A program made the translations under genes and the position numbers. Below the pieces are notes generated by a model. The model made no database searches. It saw nothing but the letters and a program-made list of their open reading frames with translations, and had not been told where the DNA came from. From an uncultured Candidatus Saccharibacteria bacterium (GTDB lineage Bacteria > Patescibacteriota > Minisyncoccia > UBA6257 > 2-01-FULL-56-20), in the NCBI GenBank assembly GCA_964361595.1, contig CAYIAX010000002.1, positions 7,722-71,721 on the forward strand: 64,000 nt of DNA, read 5' to 3'. Positions 2,382 through 55,581 of this stretch are shown piece by piece. How positions within the stretch are numbered: position 1 is the stretch's first letter; the number at the start of each line of letters is the position of its first letter.

Positions 2382-3025
2382 AAATAATTTTCGATATTTC
2401 GGTTGGCAAAATTGTAAAATATTTGGTCTTTGCCGATCTCGTTTTTTGGGCTGGCTGGGGCTTGATCTCGCCGATCTTCTCGATCTTTATCATCGAGAGA
2501 GTCGCCGGGGCGACGGTCGGCACGGTTGGCGTGGCCGCCGCCATTTATTGGATTTTGAAATCGCTTTTACAGATCCCCATCTCCCGCTATTTAGATCGCA
2601 CTCCCGGAGAGCGGGATGACTTTTACGCCTTGGCTGCTGGTCTGCTCGTGGCGGGATTTACGGCCTTTTCGTTTTTGATCGTGCGGGAAATTTGGCAACT
2701 TTATCTTACGCAAATAATCCAGGCTTTCGCTTTTAGCCTGTATTTCCCTTCGTGGATGGCTATTTTTTCCCGCCACTTGGATCGCGACAAGGTTTCCTTC
2801 GACTGGTCGCTCGACAGCACGCTTGTGGGGATAGCGATGGGTACCGCGGGGCTCGTCGGCGGCCTCATCGCAAAATATCTCGGTTTTCAGATGGTTTTTC
2901 TTCTGACCGGACTCCTCGCGATTGTAAGCGTGCTTATCCTCCTTACGATTCCCGAAGTGGTGTTGCCGCATAGGCGCGGGCCCGTTCCTCCGCCCGTAAG
3001 CCACCCTGGCGGCATCGGCAAGTAA
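2378..3025 (+). CDS. 6-TM membrane protein, resembling the C-terminal half of an MFS transporter
   Basis: Hydrophobic helices throughout. The start overlaps the upstream stop (ATGA). Confidence 0.4.
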   Translation: MKIIFDISVGKIVKYLVFADLVFWAGWGLISPIFSIFIIERVAGATVGTVGVAAAIYWILKSLLQIPISRYLDRTPGERDDFYALAAGLLVAGFTAFSFLIVREIWQLYLTQIIQAFAFSLYFPSWMAIFSRHLDRDKVSFDWSLDSTLVGIAMGTAGLVGGLIAKYLGFQMVFLLTGLLAIVSVLILLTIPEVVLPHRRGPVPPPVSHPGGIGK

Positions 3026-3027
3026 AT

Positions 3028-4761
3028 ATGCCCATTTCCAATCAAAAAATCGCCCAGGTGCTTTACGAAATTGGGGAATATTTGGACATGCAAAAGGTGT
3101 CCTTTAAGCCGCGCGCTTATGAAAAGGCCGCTCAAGCGGTTGAAGGACTCGCCGGAAGCGTGGAGGAAATTTACCGCGAGGGCGGCATCAAGGCTTTAAA
3201 AGACATTCCGGGCGTCGGCGAATCAATTGCGGAGAAAATTGAGGAACTCATTAAGACCGGCAAAGTGAAATATTATGAAGGACTTAAGAAAAAAACACCG
3301 GTAAACCTCGGGGAACTCCGCGGCATTGAAGGCCTGGGGCCAAAATCAATTCAAAAGCTATATGAGGAGTTAGGCATTCGCAGTTTGGCGGATCTGGAGC
3401 GAGCGGCGCAAAGAGGAAAGATTGCCGGGCTCTCCGGTTTCGGCAAAAAAACGGAAGCAAATATTTTGAAGGGCATCGAATTTCTCAAGGGCTCGAGCGG
3501 GCGCGCAATTTTGGGTTTTGCCATGCCGCAGATAAATTCAATTGAGGAACAGCTTAAAAAGTTAAAGGAGGTGGAGAAACTTACGGTTGCGGGCTCCGCG
3601 CGCAGAAAAAAAGAAACAATCGGAGATATTGATATCCTCGTCGTTTCAACTAAACCGGAACCGATCATGGATTACTTTACAAGCATGGCTCAAGTTGTGC
3701 GCGTTTACGCGAAGGGCAGAACCAAGTCCTCGGTGCGGACGCGGATGGGATTGGATGTGGACTTGCGCATAGTGCCCAAGGAATCTTATGGCGCCGCCTT
3801 GAATTACTTCACGGGTTCTAAGGATCACAACGTCGCTCTGCGGCAGGTCGCTATTAAAAAGGGATATAAGCTCAACGAATACGGCTTGTTCAAAGTCGGC
3901 CGCGGCAAAGAAAAAATGGTTGCGGGCGCGACCGAGGAAGAGGTTTACGCCGCTTTGGGCCTCGACTACATAGAACCGGAACTGCGCGAGCATACCGGCG
4001 AAATCGAACTGGCGGCAAAGCACGCGCTGCCGAAGCTTATCGGTTACGGCGAAATTTTAGGGGACCTACAGGTGCAGACCGACTGGACGGACGGTTCGGC
4101 TTCGATCGAAAAAATGGTGGAGGAAGCGCGGCGGCGGAAACTCCAATATATTGCGATTACAGATCACACGAAGCGGCTTGCGATGACCGGCGGCCTCGAT
4201 GAAAAGCGTATTTTAAAGCAAATGGCGGAGATAGACCATCTCAATAAAAAATTAGGCGGGAGTTTTAAGATCCTCAAGGGAACCGAATGCGACATCTTAA
4301 AAGACGGCACGCTTGATTTGCCGGATGAAGTTTTGGCAAAGCTCGATTTTGTGGGCGCTTCCGTCCACTCTTTCTTCCACTTGCCGCGGGCGGAACAGAC
4401 CGAGCGGGTAAAACGCGCAATGCGAAATCCCCATGTGGACATGATTTTCCATCCTACTGGCAGAATCTTGAAGCGGCGCGAGGCTTGCGATCTTGATTTG
4501 GATGAGGTTGTCAAGGCCGCGAAGGCGACGAAAACACTGCTCGAAATTGATGCTTACCCGGACCGCTCGGACCTCAAAGATGAATATATAAGGAAAGCGG
4601 TCGAGGCCGGCGTGAAATTAGCCGTTGATTCCGACGCGCACGCTCCGTCCCATTATGAGTTCATTGATTATGGCGTGGCCCAAGCCAGGCGGGGCTGGGC
4701 GAAGCGTAAAGATATCGTGAATAGTTGGCCAGTCGAGAAAATGTTAGCTATGCTTAAGTGA
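3028..4761 (+). CDS. polX: DNA polymerase X family protein with a C-terminal PHP phosphoesterase domain
   Basis: N-terminal HhH motifs (GIGxxIAxKI, GLGPKSIQK), a pol-beta palm, and a C-terminal ITDHTKRLAMTGG PHP motif. 577 aa. Confidence 0.8.
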   Translation: MPISNQKIAQVLYEIGEYLDMQKVSFKPRAYEKAAQAVEGLAGSVEEIYREGGIKALKDIPGVGESIAEKIEELIKTGKVKYYEGLKKKTPVNLGELRGIEGLGPKSIQKLYEELGIRSLADLERAAQRGKIAGLSGFGKKTEANILKGIEFLKGSSGRAILGFAMPQINSIEEQLKKLKEVEKLTVAGSARRKKETIGDIDILVVSTKPEPIMDYFTSMAQVVRVYAKGRTKSSVRTRMGLDVDLRIVPKESYGAALNYFTGSKDHNVALRQVAIKKGYKLNEYGLFKVGRGKEKMVAGATEEEVYAALGLDYIEPELREHTGEIELAAKHALPKLIGYGEILGDLQVQTDWTDGSASIEKMVEEARRRKLQYIAITDHTKRLAMTGGLDEKRILKQMAEIDHLNKKLGGSFKILKGTECDILKDGTLDLPDEVLAKLDFVGASVHSFFHLPRAEQTERVKRAMRNPHVDMIFHPTGRILKRREACDLDLDEVVKAAKATKTLLEIDAYPDRSDLKDEYIRKAVEAGVKLAVDSDAHAPSHYEFIDYGVAQARRGWAKRKDIVNSWPVEKMLAMLK

Positions 4762-4876
4762 TGAATCCCGTTATAAAATCAAAAGAAATTACGCATCGTG
4801 CAGTAATATTTAAATATCGCCTAAATCGTTTGCAGTCGGGCAAGCGCCAGTTTGGTTTTCTGACGGGATGAATCCG
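4761..4876 (+). repeat. ATGA-bounded ~115-nt hairpin element, copy A. Termini are ATGAATCCCGTTA ... TAACGGGATGAATCC.
   Basis: The 5' ATGA overlaps the polX stop (aagTGA). The 3' ATGA contains the NUDIX start codon. About 19 bp terminal stem including G-U pairs. Confidence 0.55.
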
Positions 4877-7261: not shown

Positions 7262-7588
7262 GGGGATGATTGGCTTCGATAGGTATGCGTCGTGAGCTGG
7301 CGAGCCGAGCGTGATCTCGTAAAACTCACATTCACAATAACTGCCAACTTCAAAGTTGCAGCTCCAGCCTACGCTTACGCGTAAGTTGGGATCGGCTAGC
7401 TTGGGTCTCTTAGGCTAATACCGGTCGTATACAAGGAGGCTAGTTCCGGACGATGGTTCTAATCCGGAGCAAAAATAAGAACCAATTCTGAGCAATCAGA
7501 ACTCGCCTTGAGTTTATCGAAGGGCTACGCTCGTAGAAGGTTCACCGATAGCATTTCCTAGACGCGGTTTCAACACCGCCATCTCCAC
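7262..7588 (+). ncRNA. ssrA: tmRNA (SsrA)
   Basis: The 5' GGGGAUGAUUGGCUUCGAUAGG pairs with the 3' ...GACGCGGUUUCAACACCGCCAUCUCCAC as a 7-bp acceptor stem. The T-arm GCGGUUUCAACACCGC is tRNA-like. An internal tag-like ORF ...GCC AAC UUC AAA GUU GCA GCU CCA GCC UAC GCU UAC GCG UAA is present. An extended -10 box TGCTAGAAT lies at 7245-7253. Confidence 0.85.
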
Positions 7589-7596
7589 TTAGAAAA

Positions 7597-7625: not shown

Positions 7626-7734
7626 TTTCAAGTGCTCCGGCCGAAGCGTCGGAGCATCCTTATTAAAATTCTACCCGGTGTGCTTATCTACTACAACGCT
7701 TAGGCAGACTTAAATTTGAGTATATACTATCCTC

Positions 7735-21051: not shown

Positions 21052-21072
21052 TTGGTGCTGGAGAGGAGATTC
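21052..21072. repeat. 21-bp direct repeat duplicating the 3' end of tRNA-Leu (ttggtgctggagaggagattc), identical to 21363-21383
   Basis: Exact match to the T-loop-to-CCA segment of the tRNA about 310 bp away. This is a classic att-like flank. Confidence 0.8.
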
Positions 21073-21120
21073 CCGCCCATTGCAAATGGGCGAGCCTCGC
21101 CCATTTGCAATGGGCGGGAA
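21070..21120. repeat. Perfect 51-bp palindrome (ttcccgcccattgcaaatgggcgag g ctcgcccatttgcaatgggcgggaa)
   Basis: 25-bp arms. It abuts the direct repeat, lies downstream of the GIY-YIG gene and upstream of rnj. Confidence 0.8.
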
Positions 21121-21123
21121 CTC

Positions 21124-21363
21124 TTACTTAAAAAATTGTTTTAGTTTTCTTCGACCACCTTCGCTTTTCCAATATTTTTCGCGCTCCTTAGCTGAACCGA
21201 GATTGGAAACTTGTTCGGAATATAAAATCTTAAATGGTGTTCTATTTCTTGTTGCTTTTACTTTACCCAAGTTATGTTCCTGAAATCGCTTTATAATATT
21301 TTCCGAAAATCCCGTATAAGTCTTTCCATCTTTTAAGCTCTGAAGGATATATACAGTATACAT
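21124..21363 (-). CDS. GIY-YIG nuclease-domain protein (YhbQ/UPF0213-like, 79 aa)
   Basis: MYTVYILQSLKDGKTYTGFSENIIKRFQEHN matches GIY-x10-YIG plus the Arg/His/Asn core. It starts 1 nt after the tRNA 3' end. Confidence 0.75.
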   Translation of the reverse strand: MYTVYILQSLKDGKTYTGFSENIIKRFQEHNLGKVKATRNRTPFKILYSEQVSNLGSAKEREKYWKSEGGRRKLKQFFK

Positions 21364-21450
21364 TGGTGCTGGAGAGGAGATTCGAACTCCTATGGTCTTG
21401 CGACCGCTGGCTCCTGAAGCCAGTGCGTCTGCCAATTCCGCCACCCCAGC
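21364..21450 (-). tRNA. tRNA-Leu (anticodon CAG), class II with a long variable arm and encoded CCA
   Basis: Folded by hand: acceptor GCUGGGG/CUCCAGC, anticodon stem-loop CUGGC-UUCAGGA-GCCAG, T-arm AGGAG-UUCGAAU-CUCCU, discriminator A. Confidence 0.85.
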
Positions 21451-23256: not shown

Positions 23257-23469
23257 CTAAAGGACCAAATTCAGAATCGCCAAAGCGACGAAAGCGATGC
23301 CAAGCACGATTGTGGCGATGAAAATGAACTTTTCCAAACCGCGGCGGGTTTGGTAAAAACCCCCGCCTTCGCCGCCGAAGATGCCGGACAAACCGGCGGA
23401 GCGCTCTTGAAGCAAAATCAAAGCGATTAAGGCGATGGAGACGATTATGTGAGCGATGGCAAGAATCAT
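23257..23469 (-). CDS. secG: Preprotein translocase subunit SecG
   Basis: LLQERSAGLSGIFGGEGGGFYQTRRGLEKF. Two TM helices. Confidence 0.7.
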   Translation of the reverse strand: MILAIAHIIVSIALIALILLQERSAGLSGIFGGEGGGFYQTRRGLEKFIFIATIVLGIAFVALAILNLVL

Positions 23470-23578
23470 CCCGTTAGAAGCAGATCATCAATCTGTAAAG
23501 TTTTATTGACCCGAGGGCAGTGTTCATCTTTTGGTATTGGTGGATATTAAATTTGATTACTGCTTCTAACGGGATCAT
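23464..23578 (-). repeat. ATGA-bounded ~115-nt hairpin element, copy C (minus orientation). Termini are ATGATCCCGTTAGAAGCAG ... CTGCTTCTAACGGGATGATTC.
   Basis: The 5' ATGA overlaps the stop of the upstream minus-strand gene (aaaTGA). The 3' ATG is the secG start. 16-bp perfect stem plus a 5-bp extension. Confidence 0.55.
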
Positions 23579-23928
23579 TTTTTTGTGGCTAAGTGGATGA
23601 CCGCACCCGCGATTCCCAGCGCAATCGCCGCGTATAGGTAAGTAAGAATCCCTCCCATGGTAAGATTTGCCGACAAAAAGTCAAGCGCGAAAAGAAAAAC
23701 TACATTGATAATAATAAACCCCAGGCCGAGCGTAAGAATGATCACGGGACCCATGAGTAGGGTAAGAATCGGTTTTACAAAAATATTTAAGAGCGTAAAG
23801 ATGAGCGCCAAGACCAAGGTTTGTTCGAAATTTCCCGTGAGCGTGAATCCGGGCAAGCGACTGTTCATTAAGAGAAGTACGGTAGCGAAAAAACCAGTGG
23901 CGGTAATAACGCGGGCGAGGAAGTGCAT
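23575..23928 (-). CDS. Small 4-TM membrane protein (DUF360 / holin-4-like family)
   Basis: Four hydrophobic helices. 117 aa. Confidence 0.4.
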   Translation of the reverse strand: MHFLARVITATGFFATVLLLMNSRLPGFTLTGNFEQTLVLALIFTLLNIFVKPILTLLMGPVIILTLGLGFIIINVVFLFALDFLSANLTMGGILTYLYAAIALGIAGAVIHLATKK

Positions 23929-25727: not shown

Positions 25728-26432
25728 ATGTCGGAACATGGAACACCTCTGACGACTGTGCGCTTGCGGAAGCTATCGGGAACGGTAGTTCTCAATCTTC
25801 CCGAGATTGATTCCGAGCTGGCGCTCGACTTTTCCAATAACGCCGACGCTCTCGCGATTGTTCTTGAGCGGGCGCTGACTCGCGAGAACCTCGACGCGGC
25901 TTTGGTCGAGCTTGGGAAGAAACGACCCGAACCGAAAAAGCCCATCGAGCACGTCGGCGACTGTTTCCGCGAAACCGGCGAACTCGCGGGAACGATGATC
26001 CAAATCCCCGCCCTCCCGCGCCCGACTCTCGCGGAACTCCGGGAAAAGTTTCCCTGGATCCGAGGAGAGAACGGCATTGAGCGTGACATCTCCCCAGAGG
26101 GAGCTGTAACGCTTGTTCTGGGTACGGTGCTCCGTGAAGGAGAGCCGTCGATTAGCGGCCTGGAATACGAGCGCCGCCTCGCGCTCGTCAGTCGCCCGCT
26201 CTTCGGCTACCAGCAACTCGCCTGGCTCGTCGAGCATCAGGACGAGCACCCCGTTTTCAAGGCTCTTCTGGGACAGATTTATATCGACGGCCCGGGCCTT
26301 GTGGTGGTGATCGATGACGGCGTCCGGTACTTCCCGTCTCTTGATCAGATCGGCAAGCGGTGGAACCTGGATTTGCACTGGATCGGCCGCGGTCTGTACT
26401 CGCGCGGCCGGATCGCCTCCGGTAAGCAGTAA
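25728..26432 (+). CDS. DGR target (variable) protein, 234 aa, with the VR at its C-terminus and no signal peptide
   Basis: The C-terminal 40 aa are encoded by the VR. RBS AAGGAGA. Confidence 0.7.
   Translation: MSEHGTPLTTVRLRKLSGTVVLNLPEIDSELALDFSNNADALAIVLERALTRENLDAALVELGKKRPEPKKPIEHVGDCFRETGELAGTMIQIPALPRPTLAELREKFPWIRGENGIERDISPEGAVTLVLGTVLREGEPSISGLEYERRLALVSRPLFGYQQLAWLVEHQDEHPVFKALLGQIYIDGPGLVVVIDDGVRYFPSLDQIGKRWNLDLHWIGRGLYSRGRIASGKQ
26299..26419 (+). repeat. DGR variable repeat (VR)
   Basis: About 121 bp homologous to 26764-26884. At least 15 mismatches, every one at a TR adenine (e.g. AAC to ATC, GTC, TAC, CAC, CGC). Confidence 0.85.
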
Positions 26433-26763: not shown

Positions 26764-26884
26764 TTGTGGTGGTGAACGATGACGGCAACCGGAACTTCCC
26801 GTATCTTGATCAGAACGGCAAGCGGTGGAACCTGAATTTGAACTGGATCGACAACGATCTGAACTCGAACGGCCGGATCGCCTC
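26764..26884 (+). repeat. DGR template repeat (TR). The ORF 26556-26900 is an artefact of TR/VR homology.
   Basis: Invariant, adenine-rich (AAC/AAT codons) copy of the VR. Located between the target gene and avd/RT. Confidence 0.85.
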
Positions 26885-26927
26885 TGGCCAGAAGCAATAG
26901 GAAATAAGGCAGGGCTCGGCGGAATGT

Positions 26928-30030: not shown

Positions 30031-30125
30031 TAGCAATCAATTTCTAATTTCCAATTACTAATTTCCAAATGTGGTTACCGTGCGGCGTTTTGAAGATTAG
30101 AAATTGGATATTGGAAATTTAACTT

Positions 30126-31475
30126 ATGCTGCTTAAACTTTCCCGCTTTTTTGTTTACACCGCTGTTTTCAGCGTTGTTGTAGTTTTGGCGAGGACATTT
30201 TTCCCTTTCATCGGAGGCAAATACTATTTTTTCCGAATTTGCGTGGAGCTGGGGATAATATTTTTCGCCCTTTGGTGGGGGTTTGAAGCTTCAGCCGGAG
30301 AGGTAAAAAAGCTTTTCAAACCGTTGCTCAAAAATCCGCTTTTCATTCTGGTTTCAGTTTTCGCTATCGTTTTCGTGCTGGCTGCACTTTTTGCTGACGA
30401 TCCCAAAGTAGCTTTCTGGTCAAATTATGAGCGAGGGGAGGGCGGATTCCAAATGTTGCATTATTACGCTTTCTTCCTTTTGCTCGTATTGCTTTTTCGA
30501 GACGAGCAGAAATGGAAAACTCTTTTTGTGTATTCTTTGGTTGCAGCGGCCTTAATGATTGGTTACGGATTGATCGCGCAACTAGGTTCGACTGGGAGTA
30601 TAACTTTTATAAGTCCTTACGGAGCAGATCCTCCTCCTACTTTTTGGGGAAAGCTCGCATCTGCTAGATTTCAGGGTTCCCTGGGTAACCCCGCTTATGT
30701 AGCGCCGTATTTGATGTTCGCGATTTTTTTTGCTTTATATCTTTGGCTTGCGCCGCTGACAAAAAAAATCTGGAGCTGGCGCGGAGTCGGCTACATCGCA
30801 CTCGCCCTCTCCTTCCTTTTCTTTTTCGTTTTGAGCCAAACGCGCGGAGCGCTCTTGGGCTTGGGCGCCTCTTTGATCCTTTACTTTTTGATTCTCGCTC
30901 TTTCGCGGCAAAATTTCCGCAAACCCGCCTTGCTGGGCCTCGCGATTGTCCTCGTGGCGGGAGGGCTACTTATAGCCAATCGCAATTCCGGCTTCGTGCG
31001 CGCCTTGCCGGGCTCCAGGATTTTTAACATTTCTTTTGGAGAACAAACTGTAAAAACCCGGCTTTGGACCTGGGGTTCGGCGTGGCGCGGCTTCAAAGAT
31101 AGGCCGATTTTGGGCTGGGGGCCGGAAAATTTCAGCACGGTTTTCGACAAACACTTCGACATAAGACACTATATACCCGGCCAAAATTCAGAAACTTGGT
31201 TTGATCGCGCACACGGCGTTCTCTTTGACTACTTAGCAGAAACAGGGATCTTGGGACTTTTAGCCTACATCGGAATTTTTGCCGCTTTCGCTTGGGAATT
31301 CTTCAAAAATGGCTTGAGCAATGGGCGCTCGCCGGCCGCCGCCGCGCTTTTCCCGGCGATCTTGGGCGGTTACCTCGTGCAGGGGTTGGTGCTTTTCGAT
31401 GTGCTGCCGATTTACTTAAATATTTTTATCGTGCTCGCAATGAGCGTGTACATTTTTAGCCATGAATCCCGTTAG
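30126..31475 (+). CDS. O-antigen ligase/polymerase-family (Wzy_C-like) membrane protein
   Basis: At least 10 TM helices and an SQTRGALLGL loop motif. Confidence 0.55.
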   Translation: MLLKLSRFFVYTAVFSVVVVLARTFFPFIGGKYYFFRICVELGIIFFALWWGFEASAGEVKKLFKPLLKNPLFILVSVFAIVFVLAALFADDPKVAFWSNYERGEGGFQMLHYYAFFLLLVLLFRDEQKWKTLFVYSLVAAALMIGYGLIAQLGSTGSITFISPYGADPPPTFWGKLASARFQGSLGNPAYVAPYLMFAIFFALYLWLAPLTKKIWSWRGVGYIALALSFLFFFVLSQTRGALLGLGASLILYFLILALSRQNFRKPALLGLAIVLVAGGLLIANRNSGFVRALPGSRIFNISFGEQTVKTRLWTWGSAWRGFKDRPILGWGPENFSTVFDKHFDIRHYIPGQNSETWFDRAHGVLFDYLAETGILGLLAYIGIFAAFAWEFFKNGLSNGRSPAAAALFPAILGGYLVQGLVLFDVLPIYLNIFIVLAMSVYIFSHESR

Positions 31476-31575
31476 AAAATTAACAAAAATGTTAATCTCA
31501 CAAGCAAAAGTTTTTATCTGCAATAATTCCTTTCAGTCGAAAGGATGGCTTCGTAATTTTCTAACGGGATGAATC
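31461..31575 (+). repeat. ATGA-bounded ~115-nt hairpin element, copy B. Termini are ATGAATCCCGTTAGAAAATTA ... TAATTTTCTAACGGGATGAATCC.
   Basis: The 5' end encodes the last codons and stop of the upstream gene (cat gaa tcc cgt tag). The 3' ATG is the start of the 31569 ORF. 15-bp perfect stem. Confidence 0.55.
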
Positions 31576-55071: not shown

Positions 55072-55476
55072 TTGCGAATGGATAAAAATCAAACAAAATT
55101 AGTTTATCCAGATTTATCCTATAAAGTTTCAGGGATTCTGTTCGCGGTTCACAATGAATTGGGCAGGTATTGCAACGAGAAACAATATTCAGATTGCATA
55201 GAAAAGCATTTTAAGAAATTTAATATTCCATATGAAAGAGAAAAGTTTCTGCCAGCTTCTTTTGAAGGCGAGCTAAAGGGAAGAAATAAAGTTGATTTTC
55301 TGGCGGATAATAAAATTATTGTTGAGGTGAAAGCAAAACGAGTTTTGGGACGGGAAGAGTATTACCAAACGAGACGATATTTGGAAGCAGAAAAGAAAAA
55401 ATTAGGAATTATCGCGAATTTTCGAGAAAAATATCTTCGACCAAGAAGAATTTTAAACTCCTCGGTCAGTTATTAG
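55072..55476 (+). CDS. GxxExxY-family protein (PD-(D/E)XK nuclease-like)
   Basis: YKVSGILFAVHNELG...EVKAK pattern. 134 aa. Flanked by imperfect direct repeats. Confidence 0.65.
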   Translation: MRMDKNQTKLVYPDLSYKVSGILFAVHNELGRYCNEKQYSDCIEKHFKKFNIPYEREKFLPASFEGELKGRNKVDFLADNKIIVEVKAKRVLGREEYYQTRRYLEAEKKKLGIIANFREKYLRPRRILNSSVSY

Positions 55477-55581
55477 CAATTCGAATTATTGGCATGAAAT
55501 TGGCATATCAGCATTTCCAGGGATAACTTAGCTATTAGCAATTCGCGTGATTGGCATAAAATTAGTATATTAGCATAACTT

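Follow-up and report, generated by a model that had tools for sequence, protein, structure and literature searches.

A hairpin-forming DNA element, here called copy C, was analyzed together with its relatives in other genomes. It lies on the minus strand between a PF04020 gene and secG in contig CAYIAX010000002.1 of an uncultured Candidatus Saccharibacteria bacterium (assembly GCA_964361595.1), of which positions 7,722 to 71,721 of the forward strand, a stretch of 64,000 nucleotides referred to as the window, were analyzed. Coordinates without a locus label are those of the window. Copy C and its surroundings comprise the following features.

23468-23575, minus strand: copy C, 108 nt from inverted repeat to inverted repeat, ATCCCGTTAGAAGCAG ... 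CTGCTTCTAACGGGAT; termini common to at least 120 loci and to full-length GIY-YIG elements
23560-23575, minus strand: 5′ arm of copy C, ATCCCGTTAGAAGCAG, coding for MIPLEA in the frame of the relic open reading frame (ORF); the full-length protein P0063 begins with MIPLE as well
23468-23483, minus strand: 3′ arm of copy C, CTGCTTCTAACGGGAT, holding the TAA that ends the relic ORF; its final AT provides the first two bases of the secG ATG
23575-23578, minus strand: 5′ copy of the putative duplicated target, ATGA, whose TGA (23577-23575) terminates the PF04020 gene; flank repeat of the TGA/TCA class
23465-23469, minus strand: 3′ copy of the putative duplicated target, ATGAT, containing the secG start codon ATG (23469-23467)
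23474-23578, minus strand: relic mini-ORF of 34 codons, MIPLEAVIKFNIHQYQKMNTALGSIKLYRLMICF followed by a stop, running from the 5′ ATG to the TAA, which ends 4 nt before the secG ATG
23575-23928, minus strand: upstream host gene, PF04020 (Phage_holin_4_2/DUF360), holin-like; its TGA (23577-23575) lies within aaATGA
23257-23469, minus strand: downstream host gene secG (SecG domain PF03840, E = 4e-15)

Read on the minus strand, the region has the order aaATG-ATCCCGTTAGAAGCAG-(76 nt)-CTGCTTCTAACGGGAT-GATTCTTGCC. The ATG at 23578-23576, directly before copy C, is the original start codon, which has been kept, and the secG ATG (23469-23467) is made up of the two last bases of the 3′ arm plus G. A preliminary description of this site had proposed a 16-bp perfect stem, followed by a 2x2 internal loop and an AUCAA/UUGAU helix. 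The arms (23575-23560 and 23483-23468) are indeed fully complementary and the inner helix is present in the predicted fold; the internal loop has to be corrected to 2x3 (UA opposite GAU). The two gene boundaries were placed correctly in that description, the TGA of the PF04020 gene overlapping the 5′ end of the element and the final bases of the copy C terminus forming the secG start codon. Following folding of the RNA of 23455-23590 (minus strand) with ViennaRNA, a minimum free energy of −35.1 kcal/mol was obtained, versus −19.3 ± 3.1 kcal/mol for shuffled sequences (z = −5.05; 0 of 200 shuffles as stable). The hairpin at copy C was hereby confirmed as real and non-random.

Several known classes of structure were considered for copy C and rejected. 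An intrinsic terminator was discarded, as GAUUCUUGCC comes after the 3′ arm on the sense strand and no terminator was called there, and a run of seven T residues is found only on the antisense side and only at copy C. Comparison with Rfam 15 gave no covariance-model match at the gathering score, and permissive E-values returned only chance matches to miRNA precursors. Readings of the conserved arms as attC site, hammerhead, hairpin ribozyme or tRNA-like structure were dismissed by eye, the motif order being wrong or the core motifs absent.

A family of hairpins at start codons

Seven occurrences of the arm core ATCCCGTTA were counted in the window, compared with an expectation of 0.41. Using a tolerant search for arm pairs, exactly three full hairpin copies were recovered from these 64 kb, at unrelated gene pairs and each co-oriented with its flanking genes. 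Besides copy C, these are:

4761-4871, plus strand: copy A, inverted repeats at 4765-4869; 5′ ATG at 4761-4763, 1 nt inside the stop codon of a PolX/PHP gene; ATG of a NUDIX gene at 4868-4870
31462-31572, plus strand: copy B, inverted repeats at 31466-31570; 5′ ATG at 31462-31464; downstream ATG at 31569-31571

The architecture of copy C had been described as that of copy A. This was borne out and applies to copy B too, all three having the layout ATG(A)-ATCCCGTTAnAA...81-84 nt...TTnTnACGGGAT-GA, with interiors that are unrelated in sequence and near-constant lengths of 105, 105, and 108 nt (A, B, and C). The 3′ AT and the G after it form a real gene start in every copy, namely that of the NUDIX gene (A), of a gene for a 205-aa TPR-like protein (B), or of secG (C). 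A second ATG stands directly 5′ of each element, at or beside the stop codon of the upstream gene: PolX/PHP for A, PF04020 for C, and for B a Wzy_C gene that stops within the 5′ arm at the TAG at 31473-31475. The relic ORFs of copies A and B read MNPVIK...FGFLTG and MNPVRK...RNFLTG, with terminal TGA codons at 4869-4871 and 31570-31572, respectively. The elements are thus short and dispersed in several copies (three in 64 kb) and carry no intact transposition gene, as do MITEs (miniature inverted-repeat transposable elements).

For the search in other genomes, a collection of species-representative genomes was scanned using the pattern ATCCCGTTANAA-N65-95-TTNTNACGGGAT. At least 120 loci matched, and the counts of mini copies given below rest on these loci (L001-L120). 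Nearly all those listed belong to the candidate phyla radiation (CPR)/Patescibacteria, with many classes represented; a few records are labelled Omnitrophota, Planctomycetaceae, Smithellaceae, Firestonebacteria, or Limnocylindrales. Scanning of viral contigs with the hairpin pattern gave 0 matches. The listed mini elements measure 92-119 nt, and 27 extra copies were present in about 900 kb of other loci. The inverted repeats of the arms, ATCCCGTTAGAA/TTCTAACGGGAT, are perfect over 16 bp in copy C, and arm positions 1-12 are near-invariant in 108 listed copies, most of these positions being set by the search pattern itself.

The 3′ arm ends in ATG in a unique orientation in 108 of 126 listed copies, and in 83 of those 108 the sequence ATGA immediately precedes ATCCCG at the 5′ flank. 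From the 3′ end of the element, an ORF of at least 60 codons, almost always started by ATG, extends in 112 of 127 listed copies (better of two orientations); the median length of these ORFs is 194 codons, versus 11 codons in the opposite orientation. About 85% of the listed copies are placed in this way, precisely at a start codon, their 3′ arm closing with the ATG that opens a long ORF; the others are situated within four codons of the start, or at stop codons and intergenic sites. Related loop cores were co-oriented relative to the downstream gene in 32 comparisons versus 1 at an alignment score of at least 28, and in 13 versus 0 at a score of at least 32. Together with the 108 of 126 copies having a unique ATG-ending orientation, this extends to the whole family the earlier statement that orientation follows local transcription.

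Flank repeats covary between the listed copies, occurring as ATGA/ATGA, ATGG/ATGG, ATGC/ATGC, ATGT/ATGT, ATAA/ATAA, and TTGA/TTGA. When TCCCG...CGGGA is taken as the element, 62 copies have the duplication TGAA/TTCA, 10 have TGGA/TCCA, 10 have TGA/TCA, 6 have TAAA/TTTA, and 5 have TGTA/TACA; the duplication is 5 nt long in 5 listed copies and imperfect in 15. In-silico excision leaves an ATG exactly at the junction in most listed copies. This flank pattern is taken to be a target-site duplication at start codons, of which copy C displays the form ATGA(T). Further signs of mobility are tandem copies (L044, L085, L089, and L110) and near-identical interiors at different genes with different flanks (L026, two copies; L074/L084; L043/L114). 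Copies of the ATAAA type are found at stop codons or in spacers (e.g., L058). The element therefore appears to be mobile, to prefer ATGAA and similar sequences, and to be retained almost only where the gene boundary is rebuilt. In locus L125, the closest relative of the PF04020-secG pair (PF04020 protein 55% identical), the element is missing, but the spacer is unrelated to that in the window. The empty site predicted for copy C is ...CACAAAAAAATGATTCTTGCC... / ...CCACAAAAAAATGATTCTTGCCATC....

Stem positions 13, 14, and 16 covary, with Watson-Crick pairs in 101, 105, and 77 of 108 listed copies, respectively, compared with about 50, 50, and 35 after shuffling of the partners; position 15 is mostly mismatched. 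RNA folds averaged −34.6 kcal/mol in sense and −33.2 kcal/mol in antisense, a difference of 1.4 kcal/mol in favor of sense, which was the better fold in 65 copies and the poorer in 42 (p = 0.004). Sense folds contained 314 G-U pairs and antisense folds 266, and the numbers of G-U and A-C mismatches in the stems (2 versus 2) are too few to inform. Selection for pairing is real but modest, and could act on the RNA or on single-stranded or cruciform DNA during mobility.

Hairpins are located at the start of the same gene in different genomes for pilC (L008, L022, L080, and L089), ssb (L034, L044, L049, and L065), secG (window and L041), clpP (L016 and L053), ftsH (L035 and L090), grpE (L081 and L118), hpf (L047 and L059), glyS (L011 and L092), PF04020 (L009 and L061), and an rmuC-like gene. 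This recurrence is about three times a rough estimate for random gene choice. For ssb, the 5′ copy agrees with the second codon of the respective gene (ATGT or ATGA), and this favors repeated insertion at preferred sites over one ancient insertion.

Two variants were observed in passing. A mini hairpin of 30 nt consisting of arms only (GCCCCGTTAGAAATCAGATTTCTAACGGGGC) is present at 2525-2554 of L095, and arm pairs 43-81 nt apart occur in other loci. In L059, the element at 3087-3188 lies between a patatin-like ORF and murC, the upstream ORF terminating inside the element; following excision in silico, the patatin-like ORF has no stop before murC.

Full-length elements with a GIY-YIG gene

The spacing of arm pairs in the listed loci is nearly always 92-119 nt. 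One outlier of 277 nt, in L070, revealed a full-length element, which reads aaaATGAATCCCGTTAGAGAC...GTCTCTAACGGGATGAaaa at positions 2980-3264 and has the same termini as the hairpins. From its 5′ ATG it codes for MNPVRDDEYYYVYVLRS...GKRFLKNRLKRFLSLTG followed by a stop, a GIY-YIG protein (PF01541, E = 1.2e-16), and the TGA of this ORF overlaps the ATG of the next gene. In general, the full element is ∼280 nt long, carries terminal inverted repeats of 11-14 bp (ATCCCGTTAGA...TCTAACGGGAT), and has as sole product a GIY-YIG nuclease of 93-95 aa. The ORF of 94 aa, MNPVRD...RFLSLTG, is of the Slx1/UPF0213 type and begins at the original ATG of the host gene; at its end, ...SLTG-TGA overlaps the rebuilt host ATG as ATGA. 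A second example, L126, has a perfect 14-bp inverted repeat and a direct repeat ATGAAT.

Homologues of the protein numbered 2295 at E ≤ 1e-8. The best 120 of these 2295 are 86-119 aa long (most 93-95 aa) and 66-97% identical to the query. All 18 homologue sequences that were read end in LTG before the stop (most in RFLSLTG) and most begin with MNPVRD, and the fold residues Y, Y-T-G, R, H, and E are invariant among them; P0063 begins with MIPLE, exactly as copy C does when read in its frame (ATG-ATCCCGTTAGAA). Among solved structures, the nearest relatives are UPF0213 protein BH0048 (1zg2, E = 1.4e-8) and an SLX1 homologue. In three independent contexts (P0046, P0027, and P0041), there is a 4-nt overlap (ATGA) between the nuclease gene and the one after it, and in one of these the upstream gene overlaps the nuclease ATG too, giving the layout of copy C.

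A metagenome scan for the full-length form yielded at least 120 loci. From these, 114 elements with flanks were obtained, of which 83 had an intact frame of at least 80 aa; the stop codon of most intact ORFs is the TGA within ATGA, and in 11 it is a TAA located 7 nt ahead of the ATG. Among the listed loci, the flanks were ATGA/ATGA in 44 cases and ATGG/ATGG in 7. A single full-element lineage (86-88% identity) was found in unrelated flanks. Element lengths are bimodal, with about 90-135 nt and 275-285 nt as the two classes and almost none between. Hairpin minis are also carried by 14 of 120 listed metagenome contigs, and in L150, from the Hainich H43 sample of the window, and in L253, a mini directly follows a full element at the rebuilt ATG.

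An autonomous partner with the same ends is thus available for the hairpins in L070, in L126, and in at least 120 metagenome loci, and its GIY-YIG protein would be the mobilizing enzyme. When a profile of the full element was compared with the minis, the two termini matched, with as many as 22 nt at the 3′ end; the long mini subfamilies have a TCCT bulge in the 3′ arm, which is explained as a relic of ...CGTTTCCTATCTCTAACGGGAT (RFLSLTG). As the minis have their termini, target, and orientation in common with the full elements and are found in tandem with them, they are considered to be derivatives of the GIY-YIG element devoid of the ORF. An intact GIY-YIG ORF is present in the full-length relatives and absent from copy C, where only the 34-codon relic is left. 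The fixed orientation of the minis is probably due to their origin as start-codon insertions derived from a co-oriented GIY-YIG gene. The constant orientation had been put forward in favor of function at the RNA level; as the main explanation this is set aside in view of that origin, and what stands is a secondary role for modest constraints on RNA and translation.

A further small GIY-YIG gene was noted in the window, at 21053-21383 (minus strand). Here, the tRNA-Leu(CAG) gene (21364-21450) is followed at once by a 79-aa GIY-YIG ORF (21363-21124; PF01541, E = 2e-14) and subsequently by a perfect palindrome of 25+25 nt at 21070-21120 (TTCCCG...CGGGAA). The last 20 nt of the tRNA-Leu gene are repeated, GAATCTCCTCTCCAGCACCA being found at 21383-21364 and 21072-21053. 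This site looks like a second kind of GIY-YIG insertion, in which the 3′ end of the tRNA would be rebuilt. Similarly, a partial tRNA copy (5′ half), a small GIY-YIG ORF, and a complete tRNA succeed one another in L001 (∼1900-2400), L053 (∼2490-2950), and L107 (∼4150-4600), all given in the coding direction of the ORF, which suggests relatives targeting tRNA genes in other CPR genomes.

Insertion, translation of secG, and rival explanations

Copy C is probably a MITE-like derivative, non-autonomous and without the ORF, of a GIY-YIG mobile element that targets start codons, with a likely relay of ribosomes into secG. Features of MITEs and of homing endonuclease genes are combined here, the parent is unusual, and there is a fair chance that a new transposon class is involved. 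Insertion would take place at start codons, preferably ATGAA, with duplication of 2-5 bp. One ATG would stay with the promoter, the ribosome-binding site, or the upstream stop codon of the host and serve as the start of the element ORF (MNPVRD...), and the terminal AT of the element together with the duplicated G would rebuild the host ATG. Copy C appears to have lost the nuclease gene and to retain just its two termini plus a degenerate interior of about 80 nt; therefore, the inverted repeats would fold as a single hairpin with a 16-bp stem in the PF04020-secG mRNA. These insertion steps and the state of copy C can be followed in the sequences.

Expression of the host gene would occur by termination and reinitiation after the element ORF. 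Ribosomes finishing PF04020 at the UGA may restart on the overlapping 5′ AUG, and reading of the 34-codon relic ORF (MIPLEAV...MICF) would melt the stem. After a stop at the UAA in the 3′ arm, reinitiation would follow 4 nt downstream at the secG AUG. The GIY-YIG nuclease would move both full and mini forms in trans. GIY-YIG enzymes typically leave 2-nt overhangs, and a 2-nt staggered cut would give a minimal duplication of 2 bp (ends drawn as ATCCCG...CGGGAT).

A relay of this kind fits the full-length design itself, in which the two ATGs mark where the ORF starts and stops. In none of the three window copies is the relic ORF interrupted before the 3′ arm, and it is likewise open in 37 of 99 listed copies, compared with 13 of 99 for the reverse complement (Fisher p = 1.4e-4) and ∼11 for shuffled interiors. 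Motifs resembling a Shine-Dalgarno sequence were present in the 3′ half of 14 listed copies in sense and of 2 in the reverse control. In 28 of 99 listed copies, a −10-like box is located before the 5′ ATG and ends 4-10 nt from it (peak at 6-7 nt), suggesting leaderless mRNAs for those host genes; in other listed copies, a Shine-Dalgarno motif or an overlapping upstream stop codon is located before the 5′ ATG. No correlation was found between leaderless context and an open relic ORF among the listed copies. Three elements are inserted 1-4 codons inside an ORF, namely L071 7373-7489 (IscS-like, MKR|IYLDY), L005 4498-4604 (lipoprotein, MRK|IYY), and L018 2107-2208 (M|FDT). The ATG is not rebuilt in these, and an in-frame ATT (AUU) at the 3′ junction, counted in favor of the relay, may indicate AUU-initiated or reinitiated genes. 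A real small protein encoded by the relic ORF was considered and rejected: differences between related copies are evenly distributed over the codon positions (7/8/8, 4/5/7, and 7/8/10) and 62% of copies have internal stops. The relic peptide shows neither conservation nor codon-position bias.

Several observations weigh against this account of copy C. The length of the duplication is ambiguous, 2-5 bp depending on where the element ends are placed, and the 5′ ATG is lost in about 10% of the listed copies. Internal stops interrupt the relic ORF in 62 of 99 listed minis, so that a relay reaching the 3′ arm cannot hold for the family as a whole. A stem of −35 kcal/mol starting 1 nt past the 5′ AUG should hinder initiation there. 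Covariation in the inner stem is not required of a plain transposase-binding repeat, and the recurring hosts (pilC, ssb, secG, clpP, and others) could reflect selection at the level of the host, not pure parasitism. Both cleavage by the nuclease and reinitiation by the ribosome are inferred from sequence. No full-length GIY-YIG element of the type of copy C is present within the 64-kb window.

As a rival explanation, the hairpin could be a host cis-regulatory RNA, in which the conserved 12-bp stem would sequester the start codon and control a regulon, possibly via a protein or temperature, the resemblance to a mobile element being secondary or the element fully domesticated. A start codon partly paired in a very stable stem, the covariation at stem positions 13, 14, and 16, the slightly greater stability of sense over antisense RNA, and the recurrence across genomes of hosts such as hpf, ssb, and the stress genes clpP, ftsH, and grpE all agree with such a role. 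It is nevertheless unlikely, given that covarying duplications, tandems, and near-identical copies at unrelated genes indicate mobility, that a nuclease-encoding element has the same termini, target, and orientation, and that no Rfam family matches. The hosts are functionally mixed (NUDIX, secG, a TPR protein, murC, and aminoacyl-tRNA synthetases), −35 kcal/mol is excessive for a thermosensor, and L125 does without the element, albeit with an unrelated spacer. An explanation through RNase III has a somewhat better, although still small, chance of being the correct one. Long perfect double-stranded RNA stems are typical substrates of this enzyme, and the stem has 16 bp in copy C and up to about 23 Watson-Crick pairs elsewhere. 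As in Correia elements, the transcribed hairpin would be cut and the cistrons uncoupled, leaving a short-leader or near-leaderless secG mRNA translated from the 3′ AUG. This would suit the 62% of listed copies unable to relay ribosomes to the 3′ arm, the about 10% without a 5′ ATG in which the host gene is yet kept, and the 28 of 99 leaderless-looking host genes. Processing alone, however, would not select for open relic ORFs, which are threefold more frequent than in the control, and the in-frame AUU junctions suit reinitiation more than de novo initiation. RNase III processing is also compatible with the insertion and relay proposed above, as a plausible parallel route.

Two other explanations concern removal of the element and the enzyme that moves it. 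Splicing of the element from the RNA, or a ribosome hop between the identical duplicated codons as in T4 gene 60 and mitochondrial byp elements, could account for flank copies that are identical even at the variable fourth base, for a stable hairpin beginning right after the take-off codon, and for the insertions after codons 1-4 in L071, L005, and L018, where AUG is not restored. Efficient removal would tolerate any position in an ORF, whereas ∼85% of copies are positioned precisely on the start codon; the terminal A of each of the three intragenic insertions falls on codon position 1 (in-frame AUU), a phase that bypassing does not need, and the full-length elements are, as far as their frames indicate, plainly read as ORFs ending at ATGA. 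Such removal or bypass is hardly credible. Almost as improbable is a membership of REPIN/REP-like or IS200/IS605-type elements (palindrome-associated transposable elements), which would be moved as single-stranded DNA by a HUH (Y1) transposase with the GIY-YIG gene as mere cargo. The size (about 100-120 nt) and the compensatory changes in a long hairpin are in line with it, and the GIY-YIG protein is tied to the element ends by sequence only. IS200/IS605 and RAYT elements, however, are not known to make flank duplications, and duplications are present here; moreover, the GIY-YIG gene is the only ORF found between these ends, and its N- and C-termini are encoded by the repeats.

Relation to known systems and further features of the window

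Bacterial MITEs such as the Correia/NEMIS elements of Neisseria, ERIC, RUP, and BOX are about 100-150 nt long and affect the expression of neighboring genes; transcripts of Correia elements are cut by RNase III. Like these, the present hairpins are short, dispersed, and without an intact ORF, with inverted repeats that form hairpins in mRNA and with duplicated flanks. Correia elements have a TA duplication and 26-bp repeats, and the termini and duplications of the hairpin family differ from these. In contrast to known MITEs, the family is placed precisely on start codons and restores the ATG there, has a partner coding for a 94-aa GIY-YIG nuclease instead of a DDE transposase, and is spread over many CPR phyla instead of one genus. 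With the REPIN-RAYT system it shares non-autonomous, hairpin-forming units of about 100 nt with co-evolving arms, mobilized in trans; REPINs, however, are extragenic, species-specific, free of flank duplications, and linked to HUH enzymes, none of which were seen here (HUH genes were not systematically searched).

The T4 seg genes and I-TevI-type endonucleases resemble the full-length element in being selfish GIY-YIG genes between host genes, in the same orientation and with limited damage to the host. Free-standing GIY-YIG homing genes undergo a cycle of gain, degeneration, and loss. They have no terminal inverted repeats or target duplication, home to cognate alleles, and carry DNA-binding domains, whereas the CPR element is a bare Slx1/UPF0213-type catalytic domain, bounded by repeats, inserted at many unrelated genes, and accompanied by MITE derivatives. 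The inverted repeats and the duplications at many unrelated genes argue for a transposition-like spread. The protein itself is a minimal single domain like the stand-alone Slx1-like proteins of UPF0213/COG2827 (1zg2), with Y, Y-T-G, R, H, and E conserved; the CPR clade is distinguished from other UPF0213 proteins by repeat-encoded extensions (MNPVRD and RFLSLTG), start-codon sites, and the ATGA overlap. Prokaryotic stand-alone Slx1-like proteins have been regarded as vertically inherited repair proteins (PMC1564403).

ATGA coupling is reminiscent of MS2 coat-replicase and of ribosomal protein operons, in which a stop codon overlaps or abuts an AUG and a start buried in a stem is melted by the upstream ribosome; here, by contrast, the coupling device would come from a mobile element and act via an intervening parasitic or relic ORF. 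GIY-YIG ORFs in insertions of CPR rRNA genes that belong neither to group I nor to group II are reported by Tsurumaki et al. (2024, PMC11270868). Those insertions differ in being located in rRNA genes and agree in the organisms and in the kind of small GIY-YIG ORF. In the open-access papers and bioRxiv preprints consulted, no description was found of start-codon insertion, of the ATGA hand-over, or of hairpin derivatives.

Taken together, the hairpins and their 280-nt parents may, at somewhat less than an even chance, constitute an unrecognized class of prokaryotic DNA transposons, with a ∼94-aa Slx1/UPF0213-type GIY-YIG protein as sole product, specificity for start codons, and hairpin MITEs before several per cent of CPR genes. 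In such a class, the termini of the nuclease would be encoded by the repeats, the start signals would be borrowed from the host, and ribosomes would be returned via the ATGA overlap. If so, a concrete role would be provided for part of the stand-alone UPF0213/Slx1-like GIY-YIG family in bacteria, and a type of mobile element would be added that joins homing-endonuclease chemistry to transposon-style ends and duplications. For gene-dense, streamlined genomes, it would represent a new parasite strategy of occupying the start codon, borrowing the expression signals, and restoring the start. A stable 100-nt hairpin stands before a noticeable fraction of CPR housekeeping genes (secG, ssb, clpP, ftsH, grpE, pilC, and genes for aminoacyl-tRNA synthetases), affecting gene calling through spurious short ORFs and wrong starts, and raising the question of how translation is initiated on hairpin-bearing mRNAs in organisms with unusual ribosomes.

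Other features were recorded elsewhere in the window. A transfer-messenger RNA gene was identified at 7262-7590 (plus strand; Rfam RF00023, 114 bits), without a report by ARAGORN. An AT-rich inverted repeat, CAATTTCTAAT...ATTAGAAATTG, at 30038-30106 lies just 5′ of the Wzy_C start (30126); it has no CCCG core and is not a member of the hairpin family. Finally, two direct repeats were detected, one of 134 nt (85% identical) at 26299-26432 and 26764-26897, 465 nt apart, and one of 47 nt (83% identical) at 55468-55514 and 55530-55576, 62 nt apart.

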